A stretch of DNA of 64,000 nucleotides from an uncultured Phycisphaerales bacterium (GCA_964482235.1 CAYZWU010000030.1:2857-66856); one strand, 5' to 3'; positions 7,619 to 47,433 are shown, numbered from the stretch's first letter. Notes: generated by a model from the sequence alone, not told the origin. Numbers and translations: made by a program.

Positions 7619-7674
7619 TCCCGGACCGGCGGACGCTCTGTCAAAGCTCCCAGGAAAATCAGGAGAAGGATCAA

Positions 7675-8073: not shown

Positions 8074-8202
8074 ACTCGGCCCATCGGCATTGCATTCGAC
8101 GGAACCAGTGGGTAAGATCCGTGATTCACATAGGATGTAGTTGAAGAAGAACCGGCTGCCGACTCGACCTCGTGCAGCCTTTCGATTCGGTTGGAAGGTA
8201 AG

Positions 8203-9747: not shown

Positions 9748-9786
9748 GACCGGATCGAGTCAAGTCGTTAGAGGCAAGGAAAGCCC

Positions 9787-11298: not shown

Positions 11299-11795
11299 AG
11301 TACTACGTCACGATGAACGACCGGGAGACCGAAGTCGATATCCGCGAAGAGAAGGGAGAGGTCCTGGGCACGCTGGATGGAAAGACATACCGTCTGCACT
11401 GTTCGGTGGTGGAGCCCGGTTCCAAGTACTCCGTCCTGATCGGCCACGAATCGCTCAACGTGACGGTCAATCCGCTGGCTTCCGAGCTGGCCATGGTCAT
11501 TTCAGGCCACCTCTACAGCACGCGGGTGCTGGACGAGCGGGAGCGAGGGGCCCTGGCCCTGGAAAAGACGTGCGAGCAGAAGGGCGGCGTGGAGAAGAGC
11601 GTGATGCCCGGCATCGTGCGCAAGATCTTCGTGGCCGAGGGCGACGAGGTGGAGGCCGGATCGCCGCTCCTCATCCTCGAGGCGATGAAGATGGAGAACG
11701 AGATCGTTGCCAGCGGCGTGGGTATTGTGTCGAAAGTGCATATCAAGCAAGGAGATGCGGTCAACTCGAACGACCCGCTCGTGACGATAGGGTAG
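11295..11795 (+). CDS. biotin carboxyl carrier protein (biotinyl domain protein)
   Basis: C-terminal EAMKMENEI biotinylation motif (AMKM lysine). Start overlaps the accC stop (ATGA), so translationally coupled. Confidence 0.8.
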   Translation: MKYYVTMNDRETEVDIREEKGEVLGTLDGKTYRLHCSVVEPGSKYSVLIGHESLNVTVNPLASELAMVISGHLYSTRVLDERERGALALEKTCEQKGGVEKSVMPGIVRKIFVAEGDEVEAGSPLLILEAMKMENEIVASGVGIVSKVHIKQGDAVNSNDPLVTIG

Positions 11796-22333: not shown

Positions 22334-22672
22334 CGTTTTTCATTCCCTTGGTCCCTCGGCGAGGGACAGGACATCGATTTCGGAAAAACCATTATCAGAC
22401 TGACCCAAAAGGATGCGCAAATCCTGTTCCCGATTCAGTCGAAATATGATTCGGCTTAATAGATTGAAATACAAAATGTTACACACGGATCGAGTTCCCC
22501 GGCACGACCAGGGGTGTGCTGAATAGGCACAGGTTGGTTTTTTGCACAACCTTCGATGAGAAGATGAGTTAAAATGACCGGATCGAATCCGGCACCCTTC
22601 ATCGCTCCGGTCAGACCGCGCTCCCTGGCGCGAAACCGGTTTTCAACCTGCAGCTAAGGAGCAGACGGTCCC

Positions 22673-32079: not shown

Positions 32080-32144
32080 GCTTACCCCTCTCGAAGTCTA
32101 TTCGATCCCTGCGTAAAACGGTCGGTCAAGGCAGAGCGATTTTT

Positions 32145-32819
32145 TCAATCTTCCTCTTTTTCCTTGTTCCGCTCATCGAGGATGAAGTCGCTGATCCGCA
32201 TCAAGCCGCGGCTGTACAGCTTCCGGACAGCCTCGGCCGACTTGTTCATGATCTTGCCGATCTGCTCGAAGGTCATCTCGTCTCTCATCCTGAGCACAAG
32301 GGCCTTGCGCTGGGGATCGGGGATCCTGTCGAGCAGACGGATGAACCTATCCAGATCCTCATCCTGCATGGCCGCCTCGCTCGGTGTGGGATCATCGGAT
32401 GGAGGCGGAGGCGCTCCCGGTGTCACGGAGTCGTCATTCACCAGCCGCTTTTCCCTGCCGATGTCCCGCTTGCCCGAAGCGAAGTAGCGTCCCTTGTCCT
32501 GGATCTTGTGAACAAGGCGTGTCAGCAGCCAGCGGAAGAATGAGTCCGGGCCACGATATTCGAACCCGTCCATGTCGCCCAGCACATCCTTCCAGACGGA
32601 CTGGACCAGGTCCACGCTTTCCATCCTGTCGCGCAGCCTCCTGCCCAGCCGCATCTTCACCGCTCCCTGCAGCCTCTCCGCATAGAGGCGGTAAAGGTCT
32701 GCCATGGCAGCCTGATCCCCCGCCTTGGCCTGAGAGAGCAGATCCCTCGTTTGGCAGTTGAGGTCGTCGCTCTGATCGCTCATCGGATGCATCATCTCCT
32801 CCAGTGGTGTATGCGTCAA
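32145..32819 (-). CDS. ECF-type sigma-70 family RNA polymerase sigma factor
   Basis: Region-2-like segment LVQSVWKDVLGDMDGFEY...FFRWLLTRLVHK. Region-4 HTH segment ALVLRMRDEMTFEQIGKIMNKSAEAVRKLYSRGLMRI. Sits immediately upstream of the kinase. Start could be an internal Met (MHPMSD or MSDQ). Confidence 0.75.
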   Translation of the reverse strand: MTHTPLEEMMHPMSDQSDDLNCQTRDLLSQAKAGDQAAMADLYRLYAERLQGAVKMRLGRRLRDRMESVDLVQSVWKDVLGDMDGFEYRGPDSFFRWLLTRLVHKIQDKGRYFASGKRDIGREKRLVNDDSVTPGAPPPPSDDPTPSEAAMQDEDLDRFIRLLDRIPDPQRKALVLRMRDEMTFEQIGKIMNKSAEAVRKLYSRGLMRISDFILDERNKEKEED

Positions 32820-32831
32820 GATTCGCCGGCA

Positions 32832-33740
32832 TTATTCGTATGCCTCGCGCGGTATCGAATGCGCCGGCCGGAATCCCACGTGGCCGCAGTTGCGCAGGGG
32901 GGCGCTCATTCCGCGGTTCGCCGAACGGCAGTAGCTGTTCTCGCGGCTCAGGAAGGAGCCGCCCCGTTTCACGCGGTAGGGGCTCGCGCCTTCATCCCAC
33001 GAGGAGCCGTCCCGCGGGGCATCTCTGTAGCTGTCGTGGACCCTGTCGCTGCAGAGCTCCCAGACGTTGCCGTGCATGTCGTGAAGCCCGAAGGCGTTGG
33101 GCCTTTTCCGCTTCACCTCGTGCGGCCGCCCGCCGGAGTTTCCCTTGTGCCAGGCATAGATGTCGAGCTCGGACTCGGAATCACCGAACGAATAGGAGGT
33201 GCGCGTGTCGGCCCGGCAGGCGAACTCCCACTCCGCCTCGGTGGGGAGCCGCAGCCCCGCCTTGCGGCACCAGTCGGAGACCGATTCCCAGCTGGCGCCC
33301 TCGACCGGAAGGTCGGCGCCGATGAACCGCCGGTCGTCCTGACCGCCTAGGGCGTCCCAGGCCTTCTTGGTGCACTCGGTGCGGCAGAGGAGAAAGGGCT
33401 GCACGGCAACGGGGTGGGGAGGAGATTCGTCCTGGTCCCCGTCCCGCCAGGAAGACCCCATCAAGAAGGTCCCCCCCGGTACCAGGACGAATTCCAACCC
33501 CGTTCTCTCATGAAAATAGATCCGCATCTTTCGTGTCACGCTTCCGCATGAATAGGTGTCTTCTCGGAGGTACCGGAACCCGGGAATCTCGAGGTCGACG
33601 GGCAGGGTCGTGATCTTCGCCGCGCCGCACTGCCAGCTGGCCTCTCCCCTGCCGAGCCCGGGACTTGCTGTAAAGCGGGATCCGGAACCGATCAAGGTCG
33701 CTATTCCCAGCAAGAAGAGGATTCCGCCTGGTATTTTCAT
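32832..33740 (-). CDS. secreted FGE/SUMF1-fold domain protein (sulfatase-modifying-factor-like, probably non-catalytic)
   Basis: Start MKIPGGILFLLGIATLIGSG (signal peptide) with an aagga RBS. Motifs LPTEAEWEFACRA, GLHDMHGNVWELC, RGGSFLSRENSYCRSANR. Only one of the two FGE catalytic Cys is present. Confidence 0.75.
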   Translation of the reverse strand: MKIPGGILFLLGIATLIGSGSRFTASPGLGRGEASWQCGAAKITTLPVDLEIPGFRYLREDTYSCGSVTRKMRIYFHERTGLEFVLVPGGTFLMGSSWRDGDQDESPPHPVAVQPFLLCRTECTKKAWDALGGQDDRRFIGADLPVEGASWESVSDWCRKAGLRLPTEAEWEFACRADTRTSYSFGDSESELDIYAWHKGNSGGRPHEVKRKRPNAFGLHDMHGNVWELCSDRVHDSYRDAPRDGSSWDEGASPYRVKRGGSFLSRENSYCRSANRGMSAPLRNCGHVGFRPAHSIPREAYE

Positions 33741-33854
33741 CGCTCTGTTCCTTAATGTAATCCGTGAGTCGGTTGTCTCGATCTGAACAGGTGAGCGAAA
33801 AAAGGCCGGGGAACCGGACAGAAAAAACGGGGAGGGCAAAGCTGTTCGATCGCT

Positions 33855-34445
33855 TCAGAGAAGAGGGACGAACCGCACGTCGAGGAGGGTGTCCTCGCTG
33901 AAGCGCTCGCCGCTCCGCTTGACCTGCTTGAGGACCTGGCGCCCCTTACCCACGGGAAGCACCATGATCCCTCCGTCGGCGAGCTGTTCCGGCAGGACGA
34001 GAAGGTCGTGTTCCGGCGCGGCGGTGATGATGATCCTGTCGAAGGGGGTCTCCTCGGGCCATCCCCCGCGGCCGTTTCCGATCCGGAAGGCGATGTTGCC
34101 GTAGTTCATCCGGAGAAGCCGTTCTTCCGCCTCGCGGCCGAGGGGCTCGATGATCTCGATCGTGAAGACGCTTCTTGCGAGCTCGGCGAGGATGGCCGTC
34201 TGGTAGCCCGATCCCGTGCCGATCTCGAGGACCTTCTCGTGACCCTCGAGCCTGAGGGCATCGGTCATGAAGGCCACGATGTAGGGCTGGGAGATCGTCT
34301 GATCGTGCCCGATGGAGAGCGGGCCGTCATGGCATGCGATATCCCTCTGGGAAGGAGGAACGAATTCGTGGCGTGGAACGTTGCGCAGCGCCGCCAGGAG
34401 GCGCCTTTCCTTGATGCCGCGCCGCTCGATCTGGTCCCTGACCAT
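33855..34445 (-). CDS. pcm: protein-L-isoaspartate O-methyltransferase
   Basis: TISQPYIVAFMTDAL and SAM motif VLEIGTGSGYQTAILA. 196 aa. Confidence 0.85.
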   Translation of the reverse strand: MVRDQIERRGIKERRLLAALRNVPRHEFVPPSQRDIACHDGPLSIGHDQTISQPYIVAFMTDALRLEGHEKVLEIGTGSGYQTAILAELARSVFTIEIIEPLGREAEERLLRMNYGNIAFRIGNGRGGWPEETPFDRIIITAAPEHDLLVLPEQLADGGIMVLPVGKGRQVLKQVKRSGERFSEDTLLDVRFVPLL

Positions 34446-34501: not shown

Positions 34502-34963
34502 TTACTTGAACTCGGTGGTCCAGTCGAAGCCGATCTCGGGATCGTCATAGGGCTTCCGTTCCTCGTCGGGATTGTCCGGGTTGTACGGCTCCGTCGTGTG
34601 GTAGAAGAGAGCTGCCGACTTGTTGCCGAGAACGCGGTATCCGTGGGCCACGCCGGGCGGAATGGAGAGCAGGATCCTGTTGTCGTCTCCCATGTAGAAG
34701 ACGTCGGTGGTCCCGTGCGTCGCCGACGTCTCGCGAAGATCGTAGAGAACGACCTGCGCCATTCCCCTGCTGAAGAACCAGATGTCCGTCTGAACGTTGT
34801 GCCAGTGGAAGGCCTTGATCGTGTTGGGATAGGTCACCGTGTAGGTGGTTTGCTTGATCTCATCGAAGATCGGATCCCCTGCCTTCACGATCTCCAGCAG
34901 GATCCCCCTGTCATCCGTGTGGATTTCAAGCGTTTTAACTTGAACGCCTTCGATTTCAGGCAT
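34502..34963 (-). CDS. RmlC-like cupin (dTDP-4-dehydrorhamnose 3,5-epimerase family)
   Basis: Start MPEIEGVQV with a GGAGGTG RBS. DDRGILLEI...FHWHNVQTDIWFFSRGMAQVVLYDLR is typical of the RmlC-type cupin. The upstream 57 codons of ORF 35137 lack an RBS and overlap the next gene. Confidence 0.6.
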   Translation of the reverse strand: MPEIEGVQVKTLEIHTDDRGILLEIVKAGDPIFDEIKQTTYTVTYPNTIKAFHWHNVQTDIWFFSRGMAQVVLYDLRETSATHGTTDVFYMGDDNRILLSIPPGVAHGYRVLGNKSAALFYHTTEPYNPDNPDEERKPYDDPEIGFDWTTEFK

Positions 34964-35015
34964 GCATTCACCTCCAAATGCTGTTCCACAGCAAGAAAAG
35001 CTGCTGCGCGTACGA

Positions 35016-35978
35016 TCAAGAATTGCCTTTTTTCTCTTTCCGGTCAAGACCTCGCTTGGCCCCGTCCCCGCCGGAACGCGGGACAACGACCAGGAACACC
35101 CAGCCGACGAGGAGGCCTGCCGGGAGGTCGATCGCATAATGGGGGCCGCCGTAGACGGTGGACACGAAGAGCCCGGAAAACAGGACGAGTAAAGGATACC
35201 GCACCGCTGATAGCAGCCGCCAGCCGAAAACCAGCGCGATCAGGGACACGGCCACGTGGGAGGAGGGGAATGCGCCCGTGGCCTTCTCGAAGCTCTGAAG
35301 GACCTCTGTCAGGAGGGGGCCGAAGATGTAGCCTTCCCAGACGATGCGTCCTCCCTGGAGATGAAACTGCGGTCCGGCCGAGGGCACGAGGCAGAAGAGG
35401 AGGTAGCAGAAGTAGAAGCAGGCGGCCACGGTGAGGACGTATTCCGAGAAGAGGCTTTTCGCCCTCAGCCAGACGACGAGACCCATACCCGGGATCAGGA
35501 TGTAGTAGGAGAAGTAGAAGAAGGCCATGACCTCCCGGAACCAGAGCTGCGGCAGGAGGGCGGGGATGGCGGTGGAGAGCGTTTCATCGAAGAGGAACCG
35601 GTCCGTACCGGTCAGCCATGGATCGATGCAGGGGATCGGGCTTCCCGGGTTGATTATTCCGGTTTCCAGGTAGAAGAGGCTGAACAGGAGGAAGGGATAC
35701 CATTCGAGGAGCGCTCTCTTCCACCGGCGGTCCGAACCGGAAAGGGCGCGGTAGCAGAAGGGAAGGACCAGGGCGGCCGTTCCGTGGCCGAGGGCGATCC
35801 ATCCCCCCGCCTGTTCGGGATGAAGAAAGAGGGCTGCCAGGAAACCCGAGAGCAGCAGGTAGACCACGGTGAGCAGGTCGACGGGCCGGATCGCGGAAGG
35901 CGCGGGAAGATCTCTCAAATCCACCCCTCCTTCCTGTACCATGCGGCCGTGGCTCCCATTCCTTCCTCGAGGCTCCAT
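35016..35978 (-). CDS. PAP2-superfamily integral membrane protein (lipid phosphatase / phosphotransferase family)
   Basis: Multiple TM helices. C-terminal PAP2 motifs FPSSHVAVS and GGPHYAIDLPAG. Start uncertain (an alternative Met at 35942 shortens the overlap with the upstream gene). Confidence 0.6.
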   Translation of the reverse strand: MEPRGRNGSHGRMVQEGGVDLRDLPAPSAIRPVDLLTVVYLLLSGFLAALFLHPEQAGGWIALGHGTAALVLPFCYRALSGSDRRWKRALLEWYPFLLFSLFYLETGIINPGSPIPCIDPWLTGTDRFLFDETLSTAIPALLPQLWFREVMAFFYFSYYILIPGMGLVVWLRAKSLFSEYVLTVAACFYFCYLLFCLVPSAGPQFHLQGGRIVWEGYIFGPLLTEVLQSFEKATGAFPSSHVAVSLIALVFGWRLLSAVRYPLLVLFSGLFVSTVYGGPHYAIDLPAGLLVGWVFLVVVPRSGGDGAKRGLDRKEKKGNS

Positions 35979-36892
35979 CTCGGCTGGAAGCCGAAATCCC
36001 CGGCCGCCTTCTGCCGCGAGCAGAGCCAGGCGTCCTGAAGGATCTCGCGCGCCTTGTAGCGGTTCAGCGTGACGGCCCGCCCGGTGACCATTCCGGCCGC
36101 CTCGGCGAGATAGGCCGCCGCGGCGAGGATCGCTCCTGGAAGGCGGATGCGAAATCCGCGCCCCACGGCCCGGGACACGGCCTGGGAGAGCTCCTTCCAG
36201 TCATGGTCGCCGCTCGTGATGAAGTAGGTCTCGCCCTCCGCCCTGGAGGAGAGCGCGGCCTCGAGGATTCCCCGGACCAGGTCGAGGACGTGGACCAGGG
36301 AGAGGATCCGGTCGGGGCGGCCGACGATCGGCACGATCCCGAGAGAGGCGAGCTTGAAGTAGATGAAGATGTCCCTGTCCCTTGGACCGTAGACGGCCGG
36401 CGGCCTGATGATCGTTGCAGGAAGATCCTTCGCCCTCTCGAGCACGGCCCGCTCGCCGGTGAGCTTGCTCCGGCCGTAGGGGGTGATCGGCCGGGGCATG
36501 GCCTTTTCGGTCACGGGGACGCGCCCCTCGGCCGGTCCCGCGGAGGCCTGGCTCGAGATGTAGACGAACCGTTTCAGGCTGCCTGCCGTCTTCAGGGCCG
36601 CCTCGACCATGGCCCGCGTGCCGTCGCCGTTGGTCCGCAGGTATTCGCCCTCCGATCTGGCCTTCACGAGGCCGGCTGCGTGGAAGATGTAGTCCGCACC
36701 GGCTGCCGCAGCGGCCAGGGAGGCGGGATCCTCGAGGCTTCCCTCGATCTTCCTGACTGCGGGAATGAGGTCGAGCCAGCTTTTTCGCTTCGGCGCGCGT
36801 ACGAGGGCCGCCACCTCCCACCCTTCATCGAGGAGAAGCTCGGCCAGGTGGCTTCCCACAAAACCGGTCGCTCCGGTCACGAGAGCTTTCAT
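35915..36892 (-). CDS. NAD-dependent epimerase/dehydratase-family (extended SDR) reductase. Candidate ceramide reductase (CerR-like)
   Basis: Start MKALVTGATGFVGSHLAELLL (Rossmann GxxGxxG), YGRSK catalytic motif. About 325 aa. The ORF track merges it with upstream antisense sequence (35915..37621). Start ATG at 36890-36892 overlaps the upstream stop (ATGA). Confidence 0.7.
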   Translation of the reverse strand: MKALVTGATGFVGSHLAELLLDEGWEVAALVRAPKRKSWLDLIPAVRKIEGSLEDPASLAAAAAGADYIFHAAGLVKARSEGEYLRTNGDGTRAMVEAALKTAGSLKRFVYISSQASAGPAEGRVPVTEKAMPRPITPYGRSKLTGERAVLERAKDLPATIIRPPAVYGPRDRDIFIYFKLASLGIVPIVGRPDRILSLVHVLDLVRGILEAALSSRAEGETYFITSGDHDWKELSQAVSRAVGRGFRIRLPGAILAAAAYLAEAAGMVTGRAVTLNRYKAREILQDAWLCSRQKAAGDFGFQPRWSLEEGMGATAAWYRKEGWI

Positions 36893-38022
36893 CCCACGAG
36901 TTCCTCGATCTTTGCCTCCCAGATGGCGTACCTCTTGCTGATCCGCGCCTTCATCTTCTCGAGGATGCGGCGCATCATTACGTTGTCCTCCAGGATCCAC
37001 GAGAGCTCGGCCGACCCGTAGCCGAGGCCGAGGCCGTTCTCCACCGTCTTGTGGATCATCATGGACTCCAGTCCGATCCCGCGAAACTTCTTTCTCACGC
37101 CCAGGGTAAGGACCCGGGTGTGGGTGATCTTGCGCTGCTCCCGAAGGAACCGGATGAAACCGAAGGGGAAGAGCCGGCCGCGAAGACGGATCAGCGCCTG
37201 GTTGAGATCGGGCAGAGTCAGGGAGAACGCCGCGGGCTCTCCGGCCTTCTCGGCGATGAGAGCCAGCTTGGGCACGATCACCGGCTTCAGCTTCTTCGCC
37301 TGCCAGAGGAACTCCTCCCCGGACATGGGGACGAAGGCCCAGTTCCTTTCCCAGGCATCGTTGTAGATCGTCCGGACCAGGGCGATCTCCTTCTCCATCT
37401 CCTTCACGCGGATCGGGCGGATCTCGATCGACTCGCGCTTTGTCTGCCGCTCGAAGAGCCGCTTCATCCGCGAGTAGTCGTTGCTCTCGTCGACGAAGTA
37501 TGCGAGAAGCTCCCTGGCTTTCCGGAGCCCGGCCGCCATCAGCAGTTCGGGGTACCATTCGGGATTGTAGGGCATCATCACGGCGGGCGCGGTGTCGAAC
37601 CCCTCGATCAGGGTGCCGCACTCCTCGTTGGTGGAGAAGCTGTACGGCCCCCTCAGGACGGTCATCCCCTTCTCACGGGCCCAGGCCGCTGCCGTGCGGA
37701 TCAGCGCCTCGGCCACTGCCGCGTCGCGGCAGAACTCGATCAGGCCGAAGCCGGCCGCCTGCTCGCCGTGGAAGCTGTTGTGAGACTCGTTCACCAGGGC
37801 GGCCACGCGACCGACGACCTCGTTTCCCCGGCGCGCCAGGTAGAACTCCGCCTCCCCGTTCCTGAAGAAGGGGTGCCGAGCCCGGTCGAGTTTCTCCTTC
37901 ATGTCGCTGAAAAGGGGAGCCACCCAGCAGGGATCGTTCCGAAAGAGACGAAAGGGAAGGTTCAGGAATTCGCGCCTGTCGCGCCGCCCCCTGACGGGGT
38001 GAACGGTGATGGCGGCTTTCAT
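36889..38022 (-). CDS. GNAT-fold acyl-CoA N-acyltransferase (Acetyltransf_6/FemAB-like). Candidate bacterial ceramide synthase or N-acyl-amino-acid synthase
   Basis: 377 aa, no TM. REFLNLPFRLFRNDPCWVAPL...FYLARRGNEVVGRVAA...GFGLIEF pattern of the FemAB-like GNAT family as I remember it. Translationally coupled to neighbours on both sides. Confidence 0.45.
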   Translation of the reverse strand: MKAAITVHPVRGRRDRREFLNLPFRLFRNDPCWVAPLFSDMKEKLDRARHPFFRNGEAEFYLARRGNEVVGRVAALVNESHNSFHGEQAAGFGLIEFCRDAAVAEALIRTAAAWAREKGMTVLRGPYSFSTNEECGTLIEGFDTAPAVMMPYNPEWYPELLMAAGLRKARELLAYFVDESNDYSRMKRLFERQTKRESIEIRPIRVKEMEKEIALVRTIYNDAWERNWAFVPMSGEEFLWQAKKLKPVIVPKLALIAEKAGEPAAFSLTLPDLNQALIRLRGRLFPFGFIRFLREQRKITHTRVLTLGVRKKFRGIGLESMMIHKTVENGLGLGYGSAELSWILEDNVMMRRILEKMKARISKRYAIWEAKIEELVG

Positions 38023-38025
38023 TCT

Positions 38026-39468
38026 TCAGATCAGTCCCAGCTTCTTGCCGACCTTCTCGAAAATTCCAAGAGCCTGGTCGAGATGATGCCTTTCGTGGGA
38101 AGCCATGATGCTCACCCTGACCAAGGCCTGGCCGGTCAGCACGGCCGGCGCGATGATGGGGTTCACGAAGATCCCTTCGCGCCGGAGAGCGAGCCAGGTC
38201 TTGAAGCAGAGCAGGTCGTTGCCGACGATGACCGGGATGATCGGCGTTTCGCTGTCCCCGGTGTTGAAGCCGAGGTCGTCGAGTCCCTCGTGCAGGTATC
38301 TGGTGTTCCTCCAGAGTCGCTTGACGAGCTCCGGTTCCTCGTCGAGCAGATCGAGAACGGCAAGGACTGAGGCGACCTGTGCCGGAGGCAGCGAGGCGCT
38401 GAAGATCAGGCTCCTGGCGTGGTGGCGGATGTAGTCGATCACCACCCGGTCGCCGGCCACGAATCCTCCGATCGAGGCGAAGGATTTCGAGAAGGTTCCC
38501 ATGATCAGGTCGACGCGGTCGGAGACCCCGAAGTGTGAGCAGGTGCCTTTCCCGTTCGGTCCCATCACGCCGAGGCCGTGGGCATCGTCCACCATCAGGT
38601 TGGCGCCATGCCTCTCGCACACTTCGAGAAGATTCGGCAGGTCGGCCACGTCGCCGTCCATGCTGAAGACGCCGTCCACCACGACGAGCTTTCCATTGCC
38701 GTTGTCGTTGGCCACGATGACCCGTTCGAGATCCTCGGGGTTGTTGTGGTTGAAACGGATCATGCGGCCGAAGGAGAGGCGTGCGCCGTCGATGATGCTC
38801 GCGTGATCGGTCTTGTCGATGAAGACGAGATCGTCCTTGGCCACGAGGGTCGAGAGCGTGCCCAGGTTGGCCTGGAAGCCCGTGGTGAAGACGATGGCGT
38901 CTTCCTTCTCCGTGAAGGCGGCCAGCCTCTTCTCCAGCTTCTCATGGATCTCCAGGGTGCCGTTGAGGAACCTCGAGCCGGCACAGCTCGATCCGTACTG
39001 CTCCAAGGCTTTGCGGGCGGCCTCCTTCACCCGGGGGTGGGTGGTCAGCCCCAGATAGCTGTTCGAACCGAGCATCAGCATCTTCTTGCCGCCCAGGGTG
39101 ATGACCGGTTCCTGGGACGACTGGATGGGACTGAAGTAGGGATAGAAGCCGGATTTCCTGGTTTCATCCGCCCTGGTGAAGTTCCGGCACTTTTCGAAGA
39201 TGTCTCTGTTGTTGTCGGAATCGGGCTGCACGGCTGGCTTTTTTTCCTCCTCGACTTCCGGGTTTTCTTGCTGTTGAAGGCCGGAACGCCACTTGAGAAG
39301 ACCGCGCCCCCAGAAGCCGCGCTGCTCCACCGCAGATGCGCTTCGATTCCCTTTGTCCTGTCGCCAGCTCCAGCGCGACAGGCGGAACGGATTCTTCTGG
39401 AAAAAGGTCTTCGATTCCCCTTCCCGTTCCTTCAAAGCAGTACGATTAAAGAACTCCCGGATTTTCAT
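38026..39468 (-). CDS. alpha-oxoamine synthase (serine palmitoyltransferase / BioF / KBL family, PLP-dependent) with about 85-aa N-terminal extension
   Basis: MLGSNSYLGL, VVDGVFSMDGD, MVDDAHGLGVMG and TFSKSFASIGGF (PLP lysine). Preferred start MKIREFF with an AGGAGC RBS (ATG at 39466-39468). The ORF-track start 39540 is GTG. Confidence 0.8.
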   Translation of the reverse strand: MKIREFFNRTALKEREGESKTFFQKNPFRLSRWSWRQDKGNRSASAVEQRGFWGRGLLKWRSGLQQQENPEVEEEKKPAVQPDSDNNRDIFEKCRNFTRADETRKSGFYPYFSPIQSSQEPVITLGGKKMLMLGSNSYLGLTTHPRVKEAARKALEQYGSSCAGSRFLNGTLEIHEKLEKRLAAFTEKEDAIVFTTGFQANLGTLSTLVAKDDLVFIDKTDHASIIDGARLSFGRMIRFNHNNPEDLERVIVANDNGNGKLVVVDGVFSMDGDVADLPNLLEVCERHGANLMVDDAHGLGVMGPNGKGTCSHFGVSDRVDLIMGTFSKSFASIGGFVAGDRVVIDYIRHHARSLIFSASLPPAQVASVLAVLDLLDEEPELVKRLWRNTRYLHEGLDDLGFNTGDSETPIIPVIVGNDLLCFKTWLALRREGIFVNPIIAPAVLTGQALVRVSIMASHERHHLDQALGIFEKVGKKLGLI

Positions 39469-39671
39469 CTCAGAGCTCCTGTCAAGAAGTCGGGTAGATG
39501 ATAGAGTCAGCATCATGTTGAGGGCAAGTGGTTTTTTCACACATTTTTATGATGCTGCGTCCCGGAAGTGAGGAAAAGAAATTGACTAACAGGCTCGGAT
39601 CCAGAATGATTTCCTGAGGTTATCGAGCGCGTTTCGGTGTCGATCCATTAATAGAAACGGGATTCGTTCCC

Positions 39672-40430
39672 ATGATATATATCTATATCCCTGCGTTTAA
39701 CGAAGAGAAGAACATCGGTCCGATTCTCGACGAGGTTCGCCGCACGCTAGATAGTGCGGATCTCAAGTATCGCCTCGTTGTGGTGAACGACGCCTCCACG
39801 GACAGAACGAGCGAGATCCTGGAGGAGTACGCCAAGACGATGCCCCTCGAGGTGGTCGCTCACGAGAAGAATCTCGATCAGGGCGGGGCGTTTCGATCCG
39901 GGATCTCGAAGATCCTCGATGAAGCGGTTGATGACGACTTCATCATCACGCTCGACGCCGACTCCTCCCACCAGCCCAGCAACATACTCGGCATCTACGA
40001 CAAGCTTCTCGACGGTAGGGACGTCGTGGTCGCCTCTCGCTACAGGCGCGGCGGAGACGAGTGGGGGGCTCCCCGGTACCGGATCTACCTCGCCAAGCTG
40101 GCCAACTGGCTCCTGCACCAGTTCTTCCCCATCGAGGAGGTGTCCGACTACACCGGCTCGTTTCGCGGCTTCAGGGCTTCGGCATTTCGCAAGGCGTGGG
40201 GCGACGAGGGTGTCGAAGTTCTCAAGGAGAACGACTTCACCGTCGTGCCGGAGGTGCTGCTCTGCCTCAGGGGCAAGGGTCTTACCTTCACGGAGATTCC
40301 CCTGATTCTCCGGTACGACCTCAAGCGGGAGAAAACGAAGATCAAGGTGAGGCAGACCCTGAAGGCCACCTCACGCCTGATCTGGCGCAGGATGCTTGGC
40401 GGGCTCAAGCAGCGGCGCAGCAAGTCCTGA
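39672..40430 (+). CDS. family-2 glycosyltransferase, polyprenol-phosphate sugar transferase (DPM1-like)
   Basis: IYIPAFNEEKNI, VVNDASTDRT, LDADSSHQP (DxD-type) and VASRYRRGG motifs. 252 aa. Divergent from the Spt-like gene. Confidence 0.75.
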   Translation: MIYIYIPAFNEEKNIGPILDEVRRTLDSADLKYRLVVVNDASTDRTSEILEEYAKTMPLEVVAHEKNLDQGGAFRSGISKILDEAVDDDFIITLDADSSHQPSNILGIYDKLLDGRDVVVASRYRRGGDEWGAPRYRIYLAKLANWLLHQFFPIEEVSDYTGSFRGFRASAFRKAWGDEGVEVLKENDFTVVPEVLLCLRGKGLTFTEIPLILRYDLKREKTKIKVRQTLKATSRLIWRRMLGGLKQRRSKS

Positions 40431-40443
40431 ATATCCCCTCCGG

Positions 40444-41604
40444 CTACTCTTCCCCCAGAGCCTTGCGGAACTCGCTCTCCAGGTGCTCGAGCATGGCCTC
40501 CCGTCTCCTGTAGAGCCTCTTCAGCGGGCGCTTCTTCGCCCTGGACAGGGCGTAGTGCGTGATGAGGGGCAGCGCCACAGTCGCGTCCATGTAGGCCACC
40601 ACCGCGTCGGGCAGCTGGTCGGGATTGATCTTTCCCCACGACACCGCCTCGCTGGGAGTGGCGCCCGAGAGGCCGCCCGTGTCGGGCCGCGCGTCGGTGA
40701 CCTGGATGAAGAAGTCGTGTCCGACCTCCTCGATGCCGAGGATCTCCTGGATGTGCGGCTCCGTCTGAAGGACGAAGTTCTTCGGGCTGCCGCCGCCCAC
40801 CACGAAGACGCCGGTCCTGCCGGTGCGCTTGGCATCGAGGACGATCGACGTCGACTCGTTCACGTCGAGGGAGGGGTTGAAGCGGAGCTTGTGCCCCACG
40901 ATCTCGAGCATGGCGATGTTCATGCCGATGGTGGAGTCGCCCGGCGAGCTGGTGAATACGGGGACGTCGGCCCGGTACGCGGCAGCCAGGACGGAGACGT
41001 TCCTGAGGCCGCTCTTCCGTTCCCACTCGGCGGCATACTTCCCGAGCAGCCAGTGGAATTCCGTTGTGCTCATCTCCTTCTGGAACTCGGGAGCGTCCAC
41101 GATGTTCTGGAGGATGCGGTCCGTTTTCAGGAGGCAGTCGGTGTACCCGAGGAAGACATCGTAGATGCGGACCACGTCGTTCCGGTGCAGCTTGTCGTCA
41201 TCCGTTTCATGGTGGCCCGCGTGGAGGGGGCAGTTGAAGGCGAAGTGGAGGTCGTGGTACAGGTTGGCGCCCGTCGAGACGATCCAGTCCACGAACCCGG
41301 CCCGGATCAGGGGGATCAGGCAGGAGCAGCCGAGACCGGCCGGCGTCAGGGCGCCCGTGAGGCTCATCACCACGGTCACGTCGTCGGTGAGCATCTTCTG
41401 CGTGTAGAGCTTGCACGCCTCGCCGAGCTTGCGTCCGTTGTAGGCGAGAAAAGCGTTGTCGAGGACCGTGGCGAGCGATTCGCGTCCCGTGATGCCGCGC
41501 GGGAGGATCCGTTTCCCCGAAAGCAGGGCTTTCTTCTCCGCTTTCTTCATTCCCTTGATCCAGTGGGCCTTCTTCTTGAGATAGGGGAATGTCTTTCGAG
41601 GCAT
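40444..41604 (-). CDS. deoxyhypusine synthase-like protein (DHS-like NAD-binding fold)
   Basis: [14 protein letters not shown]...[15 protein letters not shown] and GGGSPKNF resemble DHS family motifs. Similarity judged by eye. Confidence 0.55.
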
Positions 41605-41640: not shown

Positions 41641-42492
41641 TCAGCCGGTCTTGCCGATCGCTTCCTTCAGGGCGGCCACGCGCTTTGCATCCACAGGTGC
41701 GCTCACCTCGCCGTTCGCCTTGCACCATGTCCCCACGATGGCGGCATCGGCAAAGCGGAAGACCTTTTGGGCGTTATCGGGATTCAACCCGCTGCCGGCG
41801 ATCAGGAAGGCGCCGGGAACGGCGTTGCGGACGGCCTCCAGGTCCTCGATGGCCGGGCCGGATCCTGTTGCCGGACCGGTGACGATCAGGGCGTCGGCCC
41901 GGCCGCGATAAAAAGCGTCGCAGGCGGACCGGGAGATCTCCGCGGGAACCAGGGGGCTGGCGTGCTTCACGTGCACGTCGGCCGCGATGGCGATTTCGGC
42001 ATCGATGCCGCTTCTGTACCGGAGGAGATCGTGGGCCCTCCCCTCGATGATCCCCTGGTCCGTGACCGCGGCGCCGGTGAAAACGTTGACACGGATGAAG
42101 GCCGCACCGGCGGCGAGAGCCGCGCCGAGGGCGGCAAAGCCGTCGTTCCGCAGGACGTTGATCCCTACGGGGCAGGGGAAGCGCCGGCCGATCTCGCGGG
42201 CGATCACGGCCACGAGGGCCGTTGTGTGGGGTTTCACAGTCCGGGGATGAAACGGCGCGTCGCCGAAATTCTCCACGATCAGGGCGTCGGCGCCGCCGTC
42301 GATCCAGGCCGCGGCGTCGGCCAGGGCTCTCTTCTCGATCTCTGCGATCGAAGCCCTGTGCCCGGGGCTTCCGGGAAGTGGCGCGAGATGGATCGTGCCG
42401 ATCAGCGATCCGGCGGCGAGTGGAAATGTTCCGGAAATCATCTCCGCGAGGATAGCGGACGCTTTCATCCGGTTCAACCGGGAATCCGTCAT
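41641..42492 (-). CDS. BtpA/SgcQ-family TIM-barrel protein
   Basis: GTIHLAPLPGSPG near the N-terminus is the BtpA-family hallmark. Start MTDSRL at 42490-42492. The remainder of the 953-aa ORF 41641..44502 is antisense artefact. Confidence 0.6.
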   Translation of the reverse strand: MTDSRLNRMKASAILAEMISGTFPLAAGSLIGTIHLAPLPGSPGHRASIAEIEKRALADAAAWIDGGADALIVENFGDAPFHPRTVKPHTTALVAVIAREIGRRFPCPVGINVLRNDGFAALGAALAAGAAFIRVNVFTGAAVTDQGIIEGRAHDLLRYRSGIDAEIAIAADVHVKHASPLVPAEISRSACDAFYRGRADALIVTGPATGSGPAIEDLEAVRNAVPGAFLIAGSGLNPDNAQKVFRFADAAIVGTWCKANGEVSAPVDAKRVAALKEAIGKTG

Positions 42493-42708
42493 TGTTCCCC
42501 GGCCGGCCGGTGAAGGGACTCTCGCGGAGGGACGAAAGGCCTTTTCAGGCGGGAAAGAAGAGGTATTAGCCAATTTATATATAAAGAATATCTGATATAT
42601 TTCGATAATAGAAAGTGTCGGATAAAAAAACTTATAGGTCCGGGCAGCCAACCTGGGGGGGCGGCAGAAAGACAACACCATAACTCTTGATAGAAAAAGG
42701 GGTTGAGG

Positions 42709-45066
42709 ATGAATCTCAAGACGATTTTCTGGTCCGTCATATTGTTGACGCTGCTGGCGCTCTGGAACTGCGGCGGCGGCGGGGGAGGCGGTGGCTCTCT
42801 TCAGGGTCCTGCCGAGACCGGTGACCGCGGCGGGGGCGGAGAAGGCGGAGGCACCGACGGAGGCAGCGGTTACGGTGATTCGGACTTCGAGGTCTCGAGG
42901 GGGCCCTATGGTGGGGACCGCTTCAATGTGGTGATCGATCCACTCGATCCCAACCACATCATCACCGATTCGTGCGATCAGAGCGGAATATGGCTGAGCG
43001 AGGACGGCGGCGAGGAGTGGCGCCGCTGCTCGCCGCAGGGCTCTGCTTTCGAGCGCGCCAACACGCTGATCGCCCTGATGCGCGGCAGCGAGGGCGGCCC
43101 TGACGAGATCCTGGTGGGCATCGCCGATGAGCACGAAGCCACGAGCGCATTCTGGAAGGTCCCGCTCCGGTCGCCGGACGTCGAGGCGGCCCAGGAACTG
43201 CCCGGCGTCGTCTCCCGCATCAAGCGCCTCACCGTGGACCCGCATCCCTCGCGTCCCGGGCGGATCGCCGCGGTCTCGTTCTCCCTTGCCAACCTGCTCG
43301 AGGTGAGCCTGGGAAACATCGTTTTCAGCAGCGACAGGGGCGCCACCTGGAGTCGGTGGTACGCAGGTTCCCGCTATCATGCCGTTCTCGATCTCTGCTT
43401 CGCTCACGGCGGCGAGCGCCTGCTCATCGCCTCGGCCGGCTCGCTGTCGGTCACCGACCTCAATCTCCTCTACGAGGATGAGGGGACTGACGGCGTGCTC
43501 GAGGTCATCTACTCCCTGGAGAGCAACGTTCCCATCAGGCCGGATTGGGTGGCAAGGTATTCGATCGATGAAGTTCCCTGCGTCGTCGTCGCCGATCCCC
43601 AGACCGGTGCGCTGGTCGAACCGTACACCCTTCTCACCGGAAGCCGTGTCCAGGCTTTTGCCATGGATCCCGGCCTCGAGAATGTGATCTGGTTCGCCCA
43701 CTCCCTCGGCCTGGCCCGATCGGTCAGCAACGGGATGACGGCCGAGGACGTGCAGATGGCTCTGACTGGATCGCGGAGCGGTTTCATCACCCCGATGAAG
43801 CACCAGGGCATCACCGTTCTCGATGATCCCGGCTCCGGCGGGGAGGAGACGGTCTTTCTCAGCCTCGGCGGCGGCCTCAGCTGGAACAGGGGGATCTTCA
43901 AGCTCCAGTACGACGTGGAGTCCTCCCTCTGGCAGGCGGAGCGGGTATCGCCAGGTCCATCGACGCGGTTCCAGGAATATCCCAAGGGCCCGGTCTGCGC
44001 CGCGCCGTCGGACGGGAGAAGGCTCTATGCGCCGTACTGCCAGGACTCGATTCTCCGCTCCGACAACTTCGGGGAGATCGAGACCTGGACGGTGGCGAAG
44101 AAGGGGCTGACAGGGGTCAACGTGTTCGGCGTGGTCGAGGATCCGTCGGACTCGAGCGTGGTGATGGTGACCGGACAGAACGTGATCCGGCGCAACAACA
44201 ACCGGATCGCGAACTCCGAGTGGCTGCCCTTCGTGATCCAGCAGGACCAGGTGACCGCGAACCTGAGGGCCGGAGCCATCGTCGATCCCGAGGATTCGAA
44301 CCGGTGGCTCGTGGCAGGCGGCGCCGGCGCCGGCGTCAACCTTAACGGCGGCGCCTGGCTCACGAACGACGGCGGATACACCTGGGAGCGCACGCTGGGC
44401 AGCAACGAGAACCAGGAGACCAATCCGCAGGTCTACGCCATCGCGCAGCATCCCGAGTATCCGGAACTCGTGGCGGCGGCGAGCGGGCTCTGGTGCGGCC
44501 ACGGTACGGCGGGTGTCTTTGCCAGCCTCGAGCGGGGGGCGGCAGGGAGCTTTGTCCAGGTCCTCGGCGACGGAGCCTACGGAGCCCTGGCCGCACTGGA
44601 GATCCCTGGCGAGGCGGGCACCATCCTTGCCGGCGGGGAAGCCGGCCTGGCTCTCCTCACGATCTCCGCCGGCGGCGAGGTTGAAGCAATGAAGCTCGCG
44701 TGGGAGAACGGAGCGATCGCCGCCCTGGCCTGGGACGGCACCACCGTCTACGCCGGGACCGCGGAGGGGAAGATCTTCTCCATCGAGGACGATTCGCTGC
44801 GTGAACCAGGCGCGTGGTACGAGCTCGACGACATCGGATGCGAGATAACGGCCCTGGCCGTCTCGTCGGCGAGACCGGGCGAGATCTATGCCGGAACGAC
44901 GGAGAACGGGATCTTCCGCAGCCTCGATGGAGGCGGGGTGTTCGACCTGTTCGCCAGCGGGCTGGAGAGCAGCGAGCAGAAGGTGTTCTGCCTGCTCATC
45001 TCATCGAGGGGGGACCGGCTCTACGCCGGCACGCTCGGCGGTCTTGCTGTCCGGAAGCTGGATTGA
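42709..45066 (+). CDS. lipoprotein with BNR/Asp-box repeats (two predicted beta-propellers; sialidase/sortilin-like fold)
   Basis: Signal plus Cys (LLALWNCGGGGGG) and a Gly-rich linker. Asp-box motifs SEDGGEEW, SSDRGATWS, TNDGGYTWE, SLDGGGVF. ATG 42709 with an aaggggttgagg RBS. Confidence 0.65.
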   Translation: MNLKTIFWSVILLTLLALWNCGGGGGGGGSLQGPAETGDRGGGGEGGGTDGGSGYGDSDFEVSRGPYGGDRFNVVIDPLDPNHIITDSCDQSGIWLSEDGGEEWRRCSPQGSAFERANTLIALMRGSEGGPDEILVGIADEHEATSAFWKVPLRSPDVEAAQELPGVVSRIKRLTVDPHPSRPGRIAAVSFSLANLLEVSLGNIVFSSDRGATWSRWYAGSRYHAVLDLCFAHGGERLLIASAGSLSVTDLNLLYEDEGTDGVLEVIYSLESNVPIRPDWVARYSIDEVPCVVVADPQTGALVEPYTLLTGSRVQAFAMDPGLENVIWFAHSLGLARSVSNGMTAEDVQMALTGSRSGFITPMKHQGITVLDDPGSGGEETVFLSLGGGLSWNRGIFKLQYDVESSLWQAERVSPGPSTRFQEYPKGPVCAAPSDGRRLYAPYCQDSILRSDNFGEIETWTVAKKGLTGVNVFGVVEDPSDSSVVMVTGQNVIRRNNNRIANSEWLPFVIQQDQVTANLRAGAIVDPEDSNRWLVAGGAGAGVNLNGGAWLTNDGGYTWERTLGSNENQETNPQVYAIAQHPEYPELVAAASGLWCGHGTAGVFASLERGAAGSFVQVLGDGAYGALAALEIPGEAGTILAGGEAGLALLTISAGGEVEAMKLAWENGAIAALAWDGTTVYAGTAEGKIFSIEDDSLREPGAWYELDDIGCEITALAVSSARPGEIYAGTTENGIFRSLDGGGVFDLFASGLESSEQKVFCLLISSRGDRLYAGTLGGLAVRKLD

Positions 45067-46738: not shown

Positions 46739-46870
46739 CACCCATGAGAGGGCCAGGTGGGTGCATGGAGCGGTCCCGGCTATTAACCCTTACGTTTTAC
46801 AGTATCAGCTACCGAAGCTCCGGCCCATCTCCAGGGCCTTCAGGTTGATTTCCACGGTCTTCGGCTTGAC
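46739..46870. repeat. direct repeat copy B (native iorB 3' end and downstream region)
   Basis: See copy A. Includes the authentic iorB stop at 46805-46807. Confidence 0.85.
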
Positions 46871-47377
46871 GTTCTTCTGCAGCGTATCGCGCCAGTTCTC
46901 CATGTCGAAATCGAGATGGTTCGAGAGGACGCCCAGCAGGAGCACATTGACGCTTCTCACGTTTCCCGCCTCGATCGCCATGGCGTTGGCATCGAGAAGG
47001 ACCGTCTTCCCGGCCTTCTCCTTGATCCGGTCTTCCAGCTTCTCCGGGTAGGTCTCCTGTCCCGAGGGAAGGAGCTCCATCGTGTTCACGATGGCCACCC
47101 CGTCGGGTTTCAGGAAGTGGAGCCACCTCAGGGCCTCCATCTTCTCGAAGGCGAGGATGAAGTCCGCCCCGCCTTCCTCGATCAGCGGCGAGTGGATCTT
47201 CTCGCCGAACCGGACGTGGCTCACCACCGAGCCGCCGCGCTGGGCCATCCCGTGCACCTCGCTCTTCTTCACGTCATAGCCCTGATCCAGAGCGAGAGCC
47301 GAGAGGATCTTGCTCGAGAGGAGGATTCCCTGGCCGCCCACACCGCAGATGAAAACGTTGGTCATCTTCTTCGTCAT
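46805..47377 (-). CDS. iorB: indolepyruvate:ferredoxin oxidoreductase beta subunit (2-oxoacid oxidoreductase gamma-type)
   Basis: MTKKMTNVFICGVGGQGILLSS N-terminus with a gaggaag RBS. 190 aa. Follows iorA. Confidence 0.8.
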   Translation of the reverse strand: MTKKMTNVFICGVGGQGILLSSKILSALALDQGYDVKKSEVHGMAQRGGSVVSHVRFGEKIHSPLIEEGGADFILAFEKMEALRWLHFLKPDGVAIVNTMELLPSGQETYPEKLEDRIKEKAGKTVLLDANAMAIEAGNVRSVNVLLLGVLSNHLDFDMENWRDTLQKNVKPKTVEINLKALEMGRSFGS

Positions 47378-47433
47378 TTTTCTACTTCCTCATTTCATGG
47401 CTCGTGGTCTCTAACAGAAAACACGGCCTCCCG

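Follow-up and report, generated by a model that had tools for sequence, protein, structure and literature searches.

A putative phosphosphingolipid biosynthesis operon in an uncultured Planctomycetota bacterium

Four minus-strand genes at positions 35016 to 39468 of a 64-kb window (the whole stretch of DNA analyzed, 64,000 nucleotides) quite likely form an operon of translationally coupled genes whose products would make a phosphosphingolipid. The genes encode a Spt-like alpha-oxoamine synthase (AOS), a tandem-GNAT N-acyltransferase of the bCerS family, a CerR-family extended SDR, and an AUR1-type PAP2 protein, each a candidate for one step of the pathway. The host is an uncultured bacterium of the Planctomycetota and is probably anaerobic. 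The first-pass annotation had described five co-directional minus-strand genes, the fifth encoding a cupin, and a divergent GT2 gene; all six are present in the orientation and with the domain content given there. The minus-strand genes had also been called mostly overlapping or closely spaced, which agrees with a 3-nt gap between the AOS and GNAT genes, a 4-nt overlap between the GNAT and SDR genes, a 28-nt overlap between the SDR and PAP2 genes, and a 52-nt gap between the PAP2 and cupin genes. The GT2 gene is separated from the AOS start by 203 nt. The tight packing of the genes from AOS to PAP2 was counted in favor of an operon.

The AOS gene (positions 38026 to 39468, minus strand) encodes a candidate serine palmitoyltransferase of 480 amino acids, of which residues ~89 to 480 are the catalytic core. 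Because homologs begin with MKIREFF or MRVREFF, we placed the start codon at ATG 39468, which is preceded at 7 nt by GGAG, rather than at GTG 39540, to which the open reading frame can be read back. The protein matches Pfam family Aminotran_1_2 (E = 1e-60), and its motifs GTFSKSF, DHASIIDG, and DDAHG align with those of the Sphingobacterium multivorum Spt (SmSPT), as expected for an AOS fold with a PLP lysine and active-site His and Asp. In particular, GTFSKSF, in which the PLP lysine had already been recognized, aligns with GTFSKSL of the Sphingobacterium enzyme. Among NCBIfam models, the AOS scores by far best against Spt-CFB (NF047600; 548.5 bits, followed by KBL at 410 and BioF at 398), which is below the equivalog cut-off of 640 bits for that model. 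Given that the host belongs to another phylum, a position outside the narrow CFB equivalog group is expected. The best match in the PDB is the Sphingobacterium Spt (3A2B/8GUH; 438 bits, 50% identity over ~385 residues), with lower scores for KBL/BioF (325 bits), Sphingomonas Spt (281 to 289 bits), and CapB (266 bits). In a neighbor-joining tree, the AOS falls inside a clade of SmSPT and all GNAT-linked AOSs, with KBL and BioF outside, although the bootstrap support for this split is only moderate (82/100). No CapB/SulA or CqsA sequence was part of this tree, and for CapB and CqsA the comparison with the AOS is by score only. When set against Spt, CapB, BioF, and KBL, the AOS therefore groups with Spt and not with BioF, KBL, or CapB, and it is closer to characterized Spt than to KBL, BioF, ALAS, CqsA, or CapB.

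The substrate specificity of an AOS is not predictable from overall similarity, and it is conceivable, if quite unlikely, that the locus makes a non-serine analog through the identical three-enzyme logic: a capnine-type sulfonolipid (from cysteate), a 1-deoxyceramide (from alanine), or another N-acyl amino-ketone lipid. Such a product would fit the missed Spt-CFB cut-off and also the finding that 1-deoxyceramides and sulfono-1-deoxyceramides are abundant in euxinic water (Ding et al. 2024, ISME J, PMC11334938). In contrast, the score of the AOS against the Sphingobacterium Spt far exceeds that against the solved cysteate-C-fatty acyltransferase (CapB; 438 versus 266 bits), and no cysteate synthase or CapA-like gene was found in the 64-kb window. 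We also infer that an AUR1-type transferase would need an acceptor with a C1 hydroxyl and that only a base derived from serine would provide one. Membership of the locus in the capnine/sulfonolipid pathway (CapA/CapB/CapC) was rejected on the same two scores and the lack of a CapA-like gene in the window. The sequence of the AOS does not reveal which amino acid it uses, and this may be alanine or another one instead of serine.

The first-pass annotation had noted an unusual N-terminal extension of about 85 residues in the AOS. The extension (positions 39205 to 39468, minus strand) is real, spans ~88 residues, and is confined to a narrow clade. Alignments of the AOS to Spt structures begin at residue ~89 to 90, and the preceding residues make up a basic/aromatic segment followed by an acidic linker, with the motifs FFQK, W-x-W, and F[FL]KWSFQFPW in relatives. 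The extension is kept at the protein level only in the 5 to 6 closest homologs, is conserved in comparison with the nearest related lineage (L087), and is missing from ~50 of the 54 syntenic AOSs; a search of it against 1.84 billion representatives returned no match. We infer that it is probably a peripheral membrane-binding segment.

The next gene (positions 36889 to 38022, minus strand) encodes a 377-amino-acid protein, for which the structural model has a tandem-GNAT fold. The protein is homologous over its full length to Escherichia coli YghO (32% over 376 aa, E = 1e-70) and to a Sphingomonas N-acetyltransferase ortholog (32%, E = 1e-67). In a published gene list, yghO (ECD_02850) is paired with Caulobacter CC_1154, the bCerS gene (PMC9386255); CC_1154 is CCNA_01212 and corresponds to YghO, and CC_1164 is CCNA_01222 (CerR). 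The genes encoding YghO and the Sphingomonas GNAT share their loci with Spt, ACP, and SDR genes and lptF/lptG paralogs, as in Caulobacter (gene lists in PMC9386255 and PMC11324152). The earlier reading of the 377-amino-acid protein as a GNAT-type bacterial ceramide synthase candidate is supported by these similarities, with membership in the bCerS family resting on the E. coli and Sphingomonas orthologs named in the literature.

The SDR gene (positions 35915 to 36892, minus strand) encodes 325 amino acids with a match to Pfam family Epimerase (E = 8e-36) and with the Rossmann motif GATGFVGSH and YGRSK (YxxxK). Its similarity to the E. coli ECD_02852-type epimerase-family protein (31% identity, E = 2e-42) and to the Sphingomonas SDR encoded upstream of ACP-Spt (32% identity, E = 1e-32) supports its earlier interpretation as a CerR-like reductase. 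Likened to CC_1164 (CCNA_01222) through these two orthologs, the protein is a candidate 3-keto-(dihydro)ceramide or 3-ketosphinganine reductase. The Caulobacter CerR is reported to be periplasmic (PMC11087976). In the SDR, as in its E. coli and Sphingomonas orthologs, the Rossmann motif stands at the very N terminus, with no obvious signal peptide ahead of it.

The association of these genes is not limited to the window, in which they adjoin each other. Across 80 GTDB species genomes from many phyla, a Spt-like AOS gene adjoins the GNAT gene in at least 54, a SDR gene is found near it in ~47, and an AUR1-type PAP2 gene is located beside it in 28. The linkage of GNAT and Spt genes is far beyond chance. 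Together with the homology of all three proteins, this synteny supports the three-enzyme ceramide logic (Spt, GNAT-type bCerS, and CerR) that was recognized at the outset. It also bears on whether the genes could be unrelated neighbors, namely a housekeeping AOS of the KBL/BioF type, a generic acetyltransferase, and a sugar-nucleotide epimerase/dehydratase that acts with the cupin and GT2 on a polysaccharide. AOS homologs are indeed publicly annotated as "8-amino-7-oxononanoate synthase," the SDR matches sugar-nucleotide families, and the cupin and GT2 have sugar-pathway folds. Nevertheless, the AOS-GNAT-SDR linkage recurs in dozens of phyla where neither the cupin nor the GT2 accompanies it, the SDR shows homology to CerR counterparts, the clade of the AOS excludes KBL and BioF, and there are no tdh or bio genes in the vicinity. 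Synteny and phylogeny thus largely refute a chance neighborhood, which we consider highly improbable.

The PAP2 gene (positions 35016 to 35942, minus strand) encodes a polytopic membrane protein of 308 amino acids, which scores 58.5 bits against Pfam family PAP2_3, above the gathering cut-off of 27. The idea that it is a head-group transferase has been strengthened: AUR1 is its closest match both in solved structure and in sequence, even though the identity is only ~14%. Residues H229, H268, and D272 do not vary across 47 homologs and align with H255, H294, and D298 of AUR1, which are essential by mutagenesis (PMC13133130). When PAP2 homologs were inspected from the other direction, five of the seven were found beside AOS-GNAT-SDR genes. 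A hydrolase of the PAP2 type can have an H-H-D triad too, and the locus may make ceramide as proposed with the PAP2 protein acting as a lipid phosphatase instead (on ceramide-1-phosphate, long-chain-base-1-phosphate, PGP, C55-PP, or lipid A 1-phosphate), which we regard as unlikely. The whole-protein fold resembles that of AUR1 and not those of small PAP2 phosphatases, and the family carries the S-T-x-Y of AUR1 in motif C3 instead of the phosphatase S-R and has no C1 motif (K-x6-RP). These features point to an AUR1-type phosphosphingolipid synthase candidate.

The fungal AUR1 enzyme requires the partner Kei1. Because no Kei1-like gene and no MIPS, PI synthase, or PIP synthase gene is found in the 64-kb window, the PAP2 protein should not be called an IPC synthase; inositol, CDP-alcohol, and other head-group genes are likewise missing from the window. 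Among bacteria, Bacteroides thetaiotaomicron needs its AUR1 homolog BT_1522 to synthesize phosphoinositol-dihydroceramide (PMC9246714). The PAP2 protein has in common with AUR1 and BT_1522 (the latter likened by its published description) the PAP2_3 family, the H-H-D triad, the fold, and ceramide as the predicted acceptor. However, BT_1522 is located in an inositol cluster and not beside spt, whereas the PAP2 gene is clustered with spt and has no inositol-lipid genes nearby.

On the basis of homology and synteny, from which every step is drawn, we propose that the Spt-like PLP enzyme would form 3-ketodihydrosphingosine by condensation of L-serine and a long-chain acyl thioester. The vicinity has no gene for a dedicated ACP or acyl-ACP synthetase, so the acyl donor is probably acyl-CoA or a housekeeping acyl-ACP. 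The tandem GNAT would then N-acylate the long-chain base, and the SDR would use NAD(P)H to reduce the 3-keto group, yielding dihydroceramide; this order of reactions is adopted from the Caulobacter model. Finally, the PAP2 protein, using H229, H268, and D272, may transfer the phospho-head group of a glycerophospholipid to the C1 hydroxyl of ceramide, with release of DAG. The head group could be ethanolamine, glycerol, inositol, or another group, among which the sequence does not tell.

The same three families are found, at full length and likewise clustered, in the ceramide pathway of Caulobacter crescentus, Sphingomonas, and E. coli B (36 to 40% identity for the AOS, 32% for the GNAT, and 31 to 32% for the SDR), and dihydroceramide is the predicted product in both cases. 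Unlike the Caulobacter-type loci, the locus lacks a dedicated ACP (AcpR), an acyl-ACP synthetase (AasR), and LptF/G paralogs, and it has an AUR1-type PAP2 gene within the operon and the additional Spt N terminus. Its Spt belongs to a Sphingobacterium-like clade rather than to the "Rhodobacteria" clade. SmSPT, the closest characterized enzyme, with all PLP-site motifs aligned, lacks the 88 N-terminal residues and belongs to an organism of another phylum. The first-pass annotation knew of no such locus in this type of organism, a claim that is outdated: Spt-like genes, in many cases close to bCerS and CerR genes, were reported in MAGs from 38 phyla of a euxinic water column, including 138 of Planctomycetota (PMC11334938). 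Those clusters, in MAGs of anaerobic bacteria from marine settings, match the present locus both in type and in the kind of organism that carries it. That study does not mention a PAP2/AUR1-like gene, a cupin, or an extended N terminus of the Spt, and neither "PAP2" nor "phosphatase" appears in its text. Since the pathway is known and already predicted for such bacteria, and since a bacterial AUR1 homolog is known too, we view the locus as a well-supported but fairly ordinary new example.

The cupin and GT2 genes had been taken to suggest glycosylated head groups, which is not supported: proximity is all that links them to the cluster, and neither accompanies it outside planctomycete relatives. 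The cupin gene (positions 34502 to 34963, minus strand) was assigned 153 amino acids instead of the 211-amino-acid maximal open reading frame. Its product matches Pfam family dTDP_sugar_isom (E = 1e-19, 71 bits) and, in the PDB, most closely 3EJK ("dTDP sugar isomerase") and then RmlC entries. It was rejected as RmlC proper (TIGR01221, 53.3 bits versus a cut-off of 155.75; no rml genes nearby) and is only RmlC-like. The cupin gene is found downstream of the PAP2 gene in the window and in three related lineages (L089, L091, and L098), is not found there in L087, and is missing from all 80 GTDB loci; it is a clade-specific accessory, linked to the cluster only within planctomycete relatives. The GT2 gene (positions 39672 to 40430, plus strand) encodes 252 amino acids of the DPM1/GtrB/ArnC-like, polyprenyl-phosphate glycosyltransferase type (Pfam Glycos_transf_2, E = 7e-29), with the Pyrococcus Dol-P-Man synthase as its best PDB match (66.9 bits). 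Its divergent position is kept in L087 and not in L098, and in none of the other-phylum loci of the GTDB set does a GT2 gene adjoin the GNAT gene. Its membership in the system is doubtful, and the GT2 and Pcm genes are probably mere neighbors.

The divergent intergenic region (positions 39469 to 39671) holds the 9-bp inverted repeat (39508-39516/39549-39557) that had been noticed in the AOS leader, 40 to 89 nt upstream of the AOS start codon. The repeat exists and could fold into a hairpin (dG = -15.3 kcal/mol, z = -2.68), but it carries no signal: it is one of ~22 such repeats in the window and is not conserved in L087. The same region also contains a promoter-like site on the minus strand (39527 to 39498), upstream of the AOS gene.

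The genes named in the first-pass annotation are all present in the region, as judged from domain searches and reading of the sequence. On the minus strand, gene limits were taken from third-party gene calls on identical metagenome contigs and from start-site evidence. The gene of the Spt-like alpha-oxoamine synthase (AOS; 38026-39468, 480 aa), which starts at an ATG with GGAG upstream, is followed by the genes of a GNAT protein (36889-38022, 377 aa), a reductase (SDR; 35915-36892, 325 aa), and a PAP2 membrane protein (35016-35942, 308 aa). The three junctions are a 3-nt gap, a 4-nt overlap, and a 28-nt overlap, and the four genes are translationally coupled. Further down the same strand, an RmlC-like cupin gene (34502-34963, 153 aa) lies 52 nt after the PAP2 gene, and a pcm gene (33855-34445, 196 aa) lies 56 nt after the cupin gene. 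A DPM1-like GT2 gene (39672-40430, plus strand) is divergent, with a 203-nt spacer to the AOS gene. Base composition is even throughout the window, and the cluster is bordered by housekeeping genes (for methylmalonyl-CoA mutase, propionyl-CoA carboxylase, glycine cleavage, and 2-oxoacid:ferredoxin oxidoreductase). Therefore, the region belongs to the chromosomal core, and an origin of the sphingolipid genes in a genomic island is ruled out. For three of the genes, the closest named homologues are from MAGs labelled Planctomycetota. No RNA family was found in an Rfam search of the window.

Judged by its sequence, the AOS is a probable serine palmitoyltransferase (Spt), with the ranking of NCBIfam models, the scores against solved structures, and the neighbour-joining tree all favouring this assignment over KBL or BioF. 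The top curated model is NF047600 "serine palmitoyltransferase, CFB" (548.5 bits, which misses the equivalog cut-off of 640), versus 410, 398, and 266 bits for the KBL, BioF, and ALAS models, respectively. Among solved structures, the Spt of Sphingobacterium multivorum (SmSPT) scores highest (438 bits), followed by Thermus KBL/BioF (325), Sphingomonas Spt (277-289), KBL (264-286), cysteate-C-fatty acyltransferase (266), and CqsA (140). Over the core, the window AOS shares 50% of its residues with SmSPT, 43% with Thermus KBL/BioF, 35% with E. coli KBL, and 33% with BioF. The tree of 61 sequences contained the window AOS, its relative from the planctomycete locus L087, 51 AOS proteins whose genes adjoin GNAT genes, and as references SmSPT, three proteobacterial Spt, E. 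coli KBL and BioF, and Thermus KBL/BioF. In this tree, the window AOS falls within a clade of SmSPT and the syntenic AOS genes; the proteobacterial Spt are sister to that clade, and KBL/BioF lie outside. Bootstrap values are 82/100 for the separation of all Spt from KBL/BioF and 100/100 for the grouping of the window AOS with its L087 relative.

The GNAT sequence matched nothing in NCBIfam or the PDB. A tblastn search of annotated plasmid and chromid records retrieved as full-length homologues E. coli YghO and an "N-acetyltransferase" of Sphingomonas parapaucimobilis, and these annotated orthologues anchored the bCerS and CerR comparisons in place of CCNA_01212/CCNA_01222. The E. coli locus contains lptF, lptG, AOS, ACP, SDR, fatty-acyl-AMP ligase, and divergent yghO genes, while the Sphingomonas locus contains SDR, ACP, Spt, ATP-binding protein, lptF, lptG, desaturase, and N-acetyltransferase genes; both follow the layout of the Caulobacter locus. 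Among dihydroceramide genes, "aca" comprises CC_1154, yghO ECD_02850, Swit_3908, and others, and "epi" comprises CC_1164, ECD_02852, and others (PMC9386255); CC_1154 has been named cerS and CC_1164 cerR (PMC11324152). In BLASTP comparisons, the GNAT protein is 32% identical to YghO over 376 residues (E = 1e-70) and 32% identical to the Sphingomonas protein (E = 1e-67), and the SDR is 31% identical to E. coli epi (E = 2e-42) and 32% identical to the Sphingomonas SDR (E = 1e-32). These values are better than the thresholds used for bCerS and CerR by Ding et al. (E ≤ 1e-30, coverage ≥ 50%; PMC11334938). By this homology, the GNAT protein is a bCerS-family protein and the SDR is of the CerR type, as had been proposed. 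Proteins of the bCerS family are annotated as "dATP pyrophosphohydrolase" on Roseomonas replicons and as "protein YghO" in E. coli.

The three-enzyme ceramide pathway is established (Olea-Ozuna 2021 and Stankeviciute 2022, as cited in other papers), and the locus leaves the understanding of bacterial ceramide synthesis itself unchanged. The earlier statement that no such locus had been described for an organism of this type does not hold: in a euxinic water column, Ding et al. 2024 (PMC11334938) found Spt-like genes with bCerS and CerR genes nearby in 38 phyla, with 138 Planctomycetota MAGs among those carrying Spt-like genes. Because such clusters had been reported, the window locus is another example of a known locus type, and a clean operonic one in an uncultured, probably anaerobic planctomycete. 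Public annotation hides the pathway, since its genes are named "8-amino-7-oxononanoate synthase" (widespread for Spt-like homologues), "N-acetyltransferase," "dATP pyrophosphohydrolase," and "phosphatase PAP2."

A scan with the GNAT alignment, limited to one genome per GTDB species, yielded 80 loci from groups that include Acidobacteriota, Gemmatimonadota, Zixibacteria, Eisenbacteria, Latescibacterota, Ignavibacteria, Spirochaetota, Chloroflexota, Nitrospirota, Binatia, Myxococcota, Bdellovibrionota, and Actinomycetota (Bailinhaonella). An Spt-like AOS gene (42-58% identical) adjoins the GNAT gene in at least 54 of the 80 loci, and a CerR-like SDR gene is near it in at least about 47, both counts being lower bounds because many of the remaining loci are on short contigs. 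Neither a dedicated ACP nor an acyl-ACP synthetase recurs near the GNAT gene in these loci. A search for further partners by all-against-all clustering of neighbouring ORFs, which was compromised by false antisense ORFs called in the high-GC DNA, revealed only that no other family is present in more than about eight loci. On an Acidobacteriota chromosome (OY761556.1, locus L009, 11146-12696), the AOS near the GNAT gene is only 36% identical. Its branch lies between the main Spt clades and the KBL/BioF references, outside the former, so the bCerS-like gene here may be linked to an AOS with another activity.

The PAP2 protein had been put forward as a candidate head-group transferase, and the match of its family profile to AUR1, its aligned catalytic triad, and its synteny with AOS-GNAT-SDR genes all strengthen that proposal. 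The protein matches Pfam PAP2_3 (58.5 bits), and some of its homologues also match PAP2_C, the sphingomyelin-synthase domain. A single-sequence search of the PDB found nothing; only a profile of 47 homologues reached AUR1, its best solved relative (profile positions 14-277, E = 5.5e-7), while phosphatases align with only the final 60-80 positions of the profile. The C1 motif K-x6-RP and the C3 motif S-R are established phosphatase motifs of the PAP2 superfamily. The C1 motif is missing in 46 of the 47 family members, and before the C3 histidine the family has [SA][TC]VY, similar to STMY of AUR1, instead of S-R. Residues H229, H268, and D272 are invariant in the alignment of homologues and match H255, H294, and D298 of AUR1, a triad found essential by mutagenesis (PMC13133130). 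Of the 80 species loci, 28 have a gene of this AUR1 type within 6 kb of the GNAT gene, mostly as its immediate neighbour. Conversely, five of seven PAP2 homologues, one of them on a Krumholzibacteria contig, are encoded beside AOS-GNAT-SDR genes; the two most remote are not. In B. thetaiotaomicron, the AUR1 homologue BT_1522 is needed for phosphoinositol-dihydroceramide (PMC9246714). No inositol or CDP-alcohol genes were found in the 64-kb window. We suggest that the AUR1-type gene is likely to encode the head-group transferase in many environmental phyla.

The unusual N-terminal extension of the AOS is real, as the window protein aligns with Spt structures, and with some 50 syntenic AOS proteins, only from residue ~89 onwards. 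Its carriers are limited to the five or six nearest homologues (63-100% identity, 458-482 aa); those that rank next (64-72% core identity, 394-410 aa), including one from a Planctomycetota MAG, begin at the core. Because the motifs M[KR]V[RS][ED]FF, FFQK, W-x-W, and F[FL]KWSFQFPW, which precede a variable acidic linker, are conserved across the carriers, the 88-aa extension must be translated and constrained. A search with this segment alone found no relatives in other proteins. That it serves as a basic/aromatic interfacial membrane anchor is a guess, if a reasonable one.

The cupin is RmlC-like (Pfam, 71 bits; top PDB match, 3EJK) and scores far under the rmlC equivalog cut-off. In the window and in the planctomycete loci L089, L091, and L098 (PAP2 identity of 68% in L089 and 40% in L091), its gene comes after the PAP2 gene; the cupin gene was found neither at L087 nor at any of the 80 loci of other phyla. 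Because only planctomycete relatives carry this linkage, we regard the cupin as a clade-specific accessory. Pcm is a bona fide protein-L-isoaspartate O-methyltransferase (NF001453, 218 bits versus a cut-off of 188), encoded just downstream of the sphingolipid genes in all planctomycete relatives inspected (L087, L089, L091, and L098). In L087, pcm (9933-10568) and the end of the PAP2 gene share 4 nt, an arrangement that points to co-transcription.

The GT2 resembles Dol-P-Man synthase, GtrB, and ArnC. Its divergent position is kept in L087 and not in L098, and its link to the sphingolipid cluster may be simply inherited gene order. A YfhO-like GT-C glycosyltransferase is encoded a few genes downstream of PAP2-cupin-pcm in L091 (5742-7523) and L098 (13862-15580). 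In Firmicutes, YfhO-like enzymes use polyprenyl-phosphate sugars supplied by DPM1/CsbB-like GT2s, and the window GT2 is of that type. The 9-bp inverted repeat noted in the AOS leader exists and could form a hairpin (-15 kcal/mol, z = -2.7). It was rejected as a regulatory element, since the window holds about 22 repeats like it and the L087 intergenic region keeps other blocks without the repeat.

A search of the available literature found no description of a widespread operonic AUR1-type gene, the Spt extension, or the cupin linkage, and Ding et al. (PMC11334938) mention neither "PAP2" nor "phosphatase." We consider these three features to be leads of an incremental kind. The AUR1-type gene ranks first in usefulness, as it provides a candidate head-group transferase for many uncultured sphingolipid producers; it adds a fourth gene to the three core genes by which the pathway has so far been tracked in environmental phyla. 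A four-gene construct offers a route to learning which phosphosphingolipids such bacteria contribute to anoxic waters. A joint reading, which we put forward as a long shot, is that the Spt-bCerS-CerR-AUR1-like operon forms a self-contained phosphosphingolipid module that can be transferred horizontally, occurs in at least one-third of the species with bCerS in many uncultured phyla (Acidobacteriota, Gemmatimonadota, Eisenbacteria, Latescibacterota, Krumholzibacteria, Cloacimonadota, Nitrospirota, and Planctomycetota), and is elaborated in planctomycetes by a membrane-targeting Spt extension and a lipid-acting RmlC-like cupin (e.g., for epimerisation at C2, adjacent to the 3-keto group, in ketosphinganine or keto-ceramide). 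If the cupin did act on lipid, non-canonical sphingoid stereochemistry or a non-canonical head group would result.

Elsewhere in the window, a string of plus-strand genes (5978-11795) encoding methylmalonyl-CoA mutase, a glyoxalase-fold (epimerase-like) protein, carboxyltransferase, biotin carboxylase, and a biotin carrier is a propionyl-CoA/methylmalonyl-CoA pathway cluster, which, together with the 2-oxoacid:ferredoxin oxidoreductase (46805-49188), fits an anaerobic lifestyle. A homospermidine-synthase-like deoxyhypusine synthase homologue (NF001980, 514 bits, over the cut-off) is paired with a BtpA-family gene (40444-41604 and 41641-42492, minus strand), and the same pair is upstream of the sphingolipid cluster in L087 (457-2432). 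FGE-sulfatase (formylglycine-generating-enzyme-like) domains occur in three proteins (2693-4549, minus; 32832-33839, minus; 61056-63617, plus), one of which is fused to a Ser/Thr kinase domain, and an ECF sigma factor is paired with a TPR Ser/Thr kinase at 29449-32819. Four sizeable plus-strand ORFs with good coding statistics match no Pfam family (11977-14025, 42703-45066, 54710-56317, and 56636-57700); the one of 787 aa has a signal-like start and then a glycine-rich stretch. Two divergent genes encode giant CarboxypepD_reg-repeat proteins of 1166 and 971 aa (18833-22333, minus; 22673-25588, plus), with a lone tRNA-Ala(TGC) at 22510-22600 between them, and the L087 cluster is likewise flanked by giant repeat proteins.
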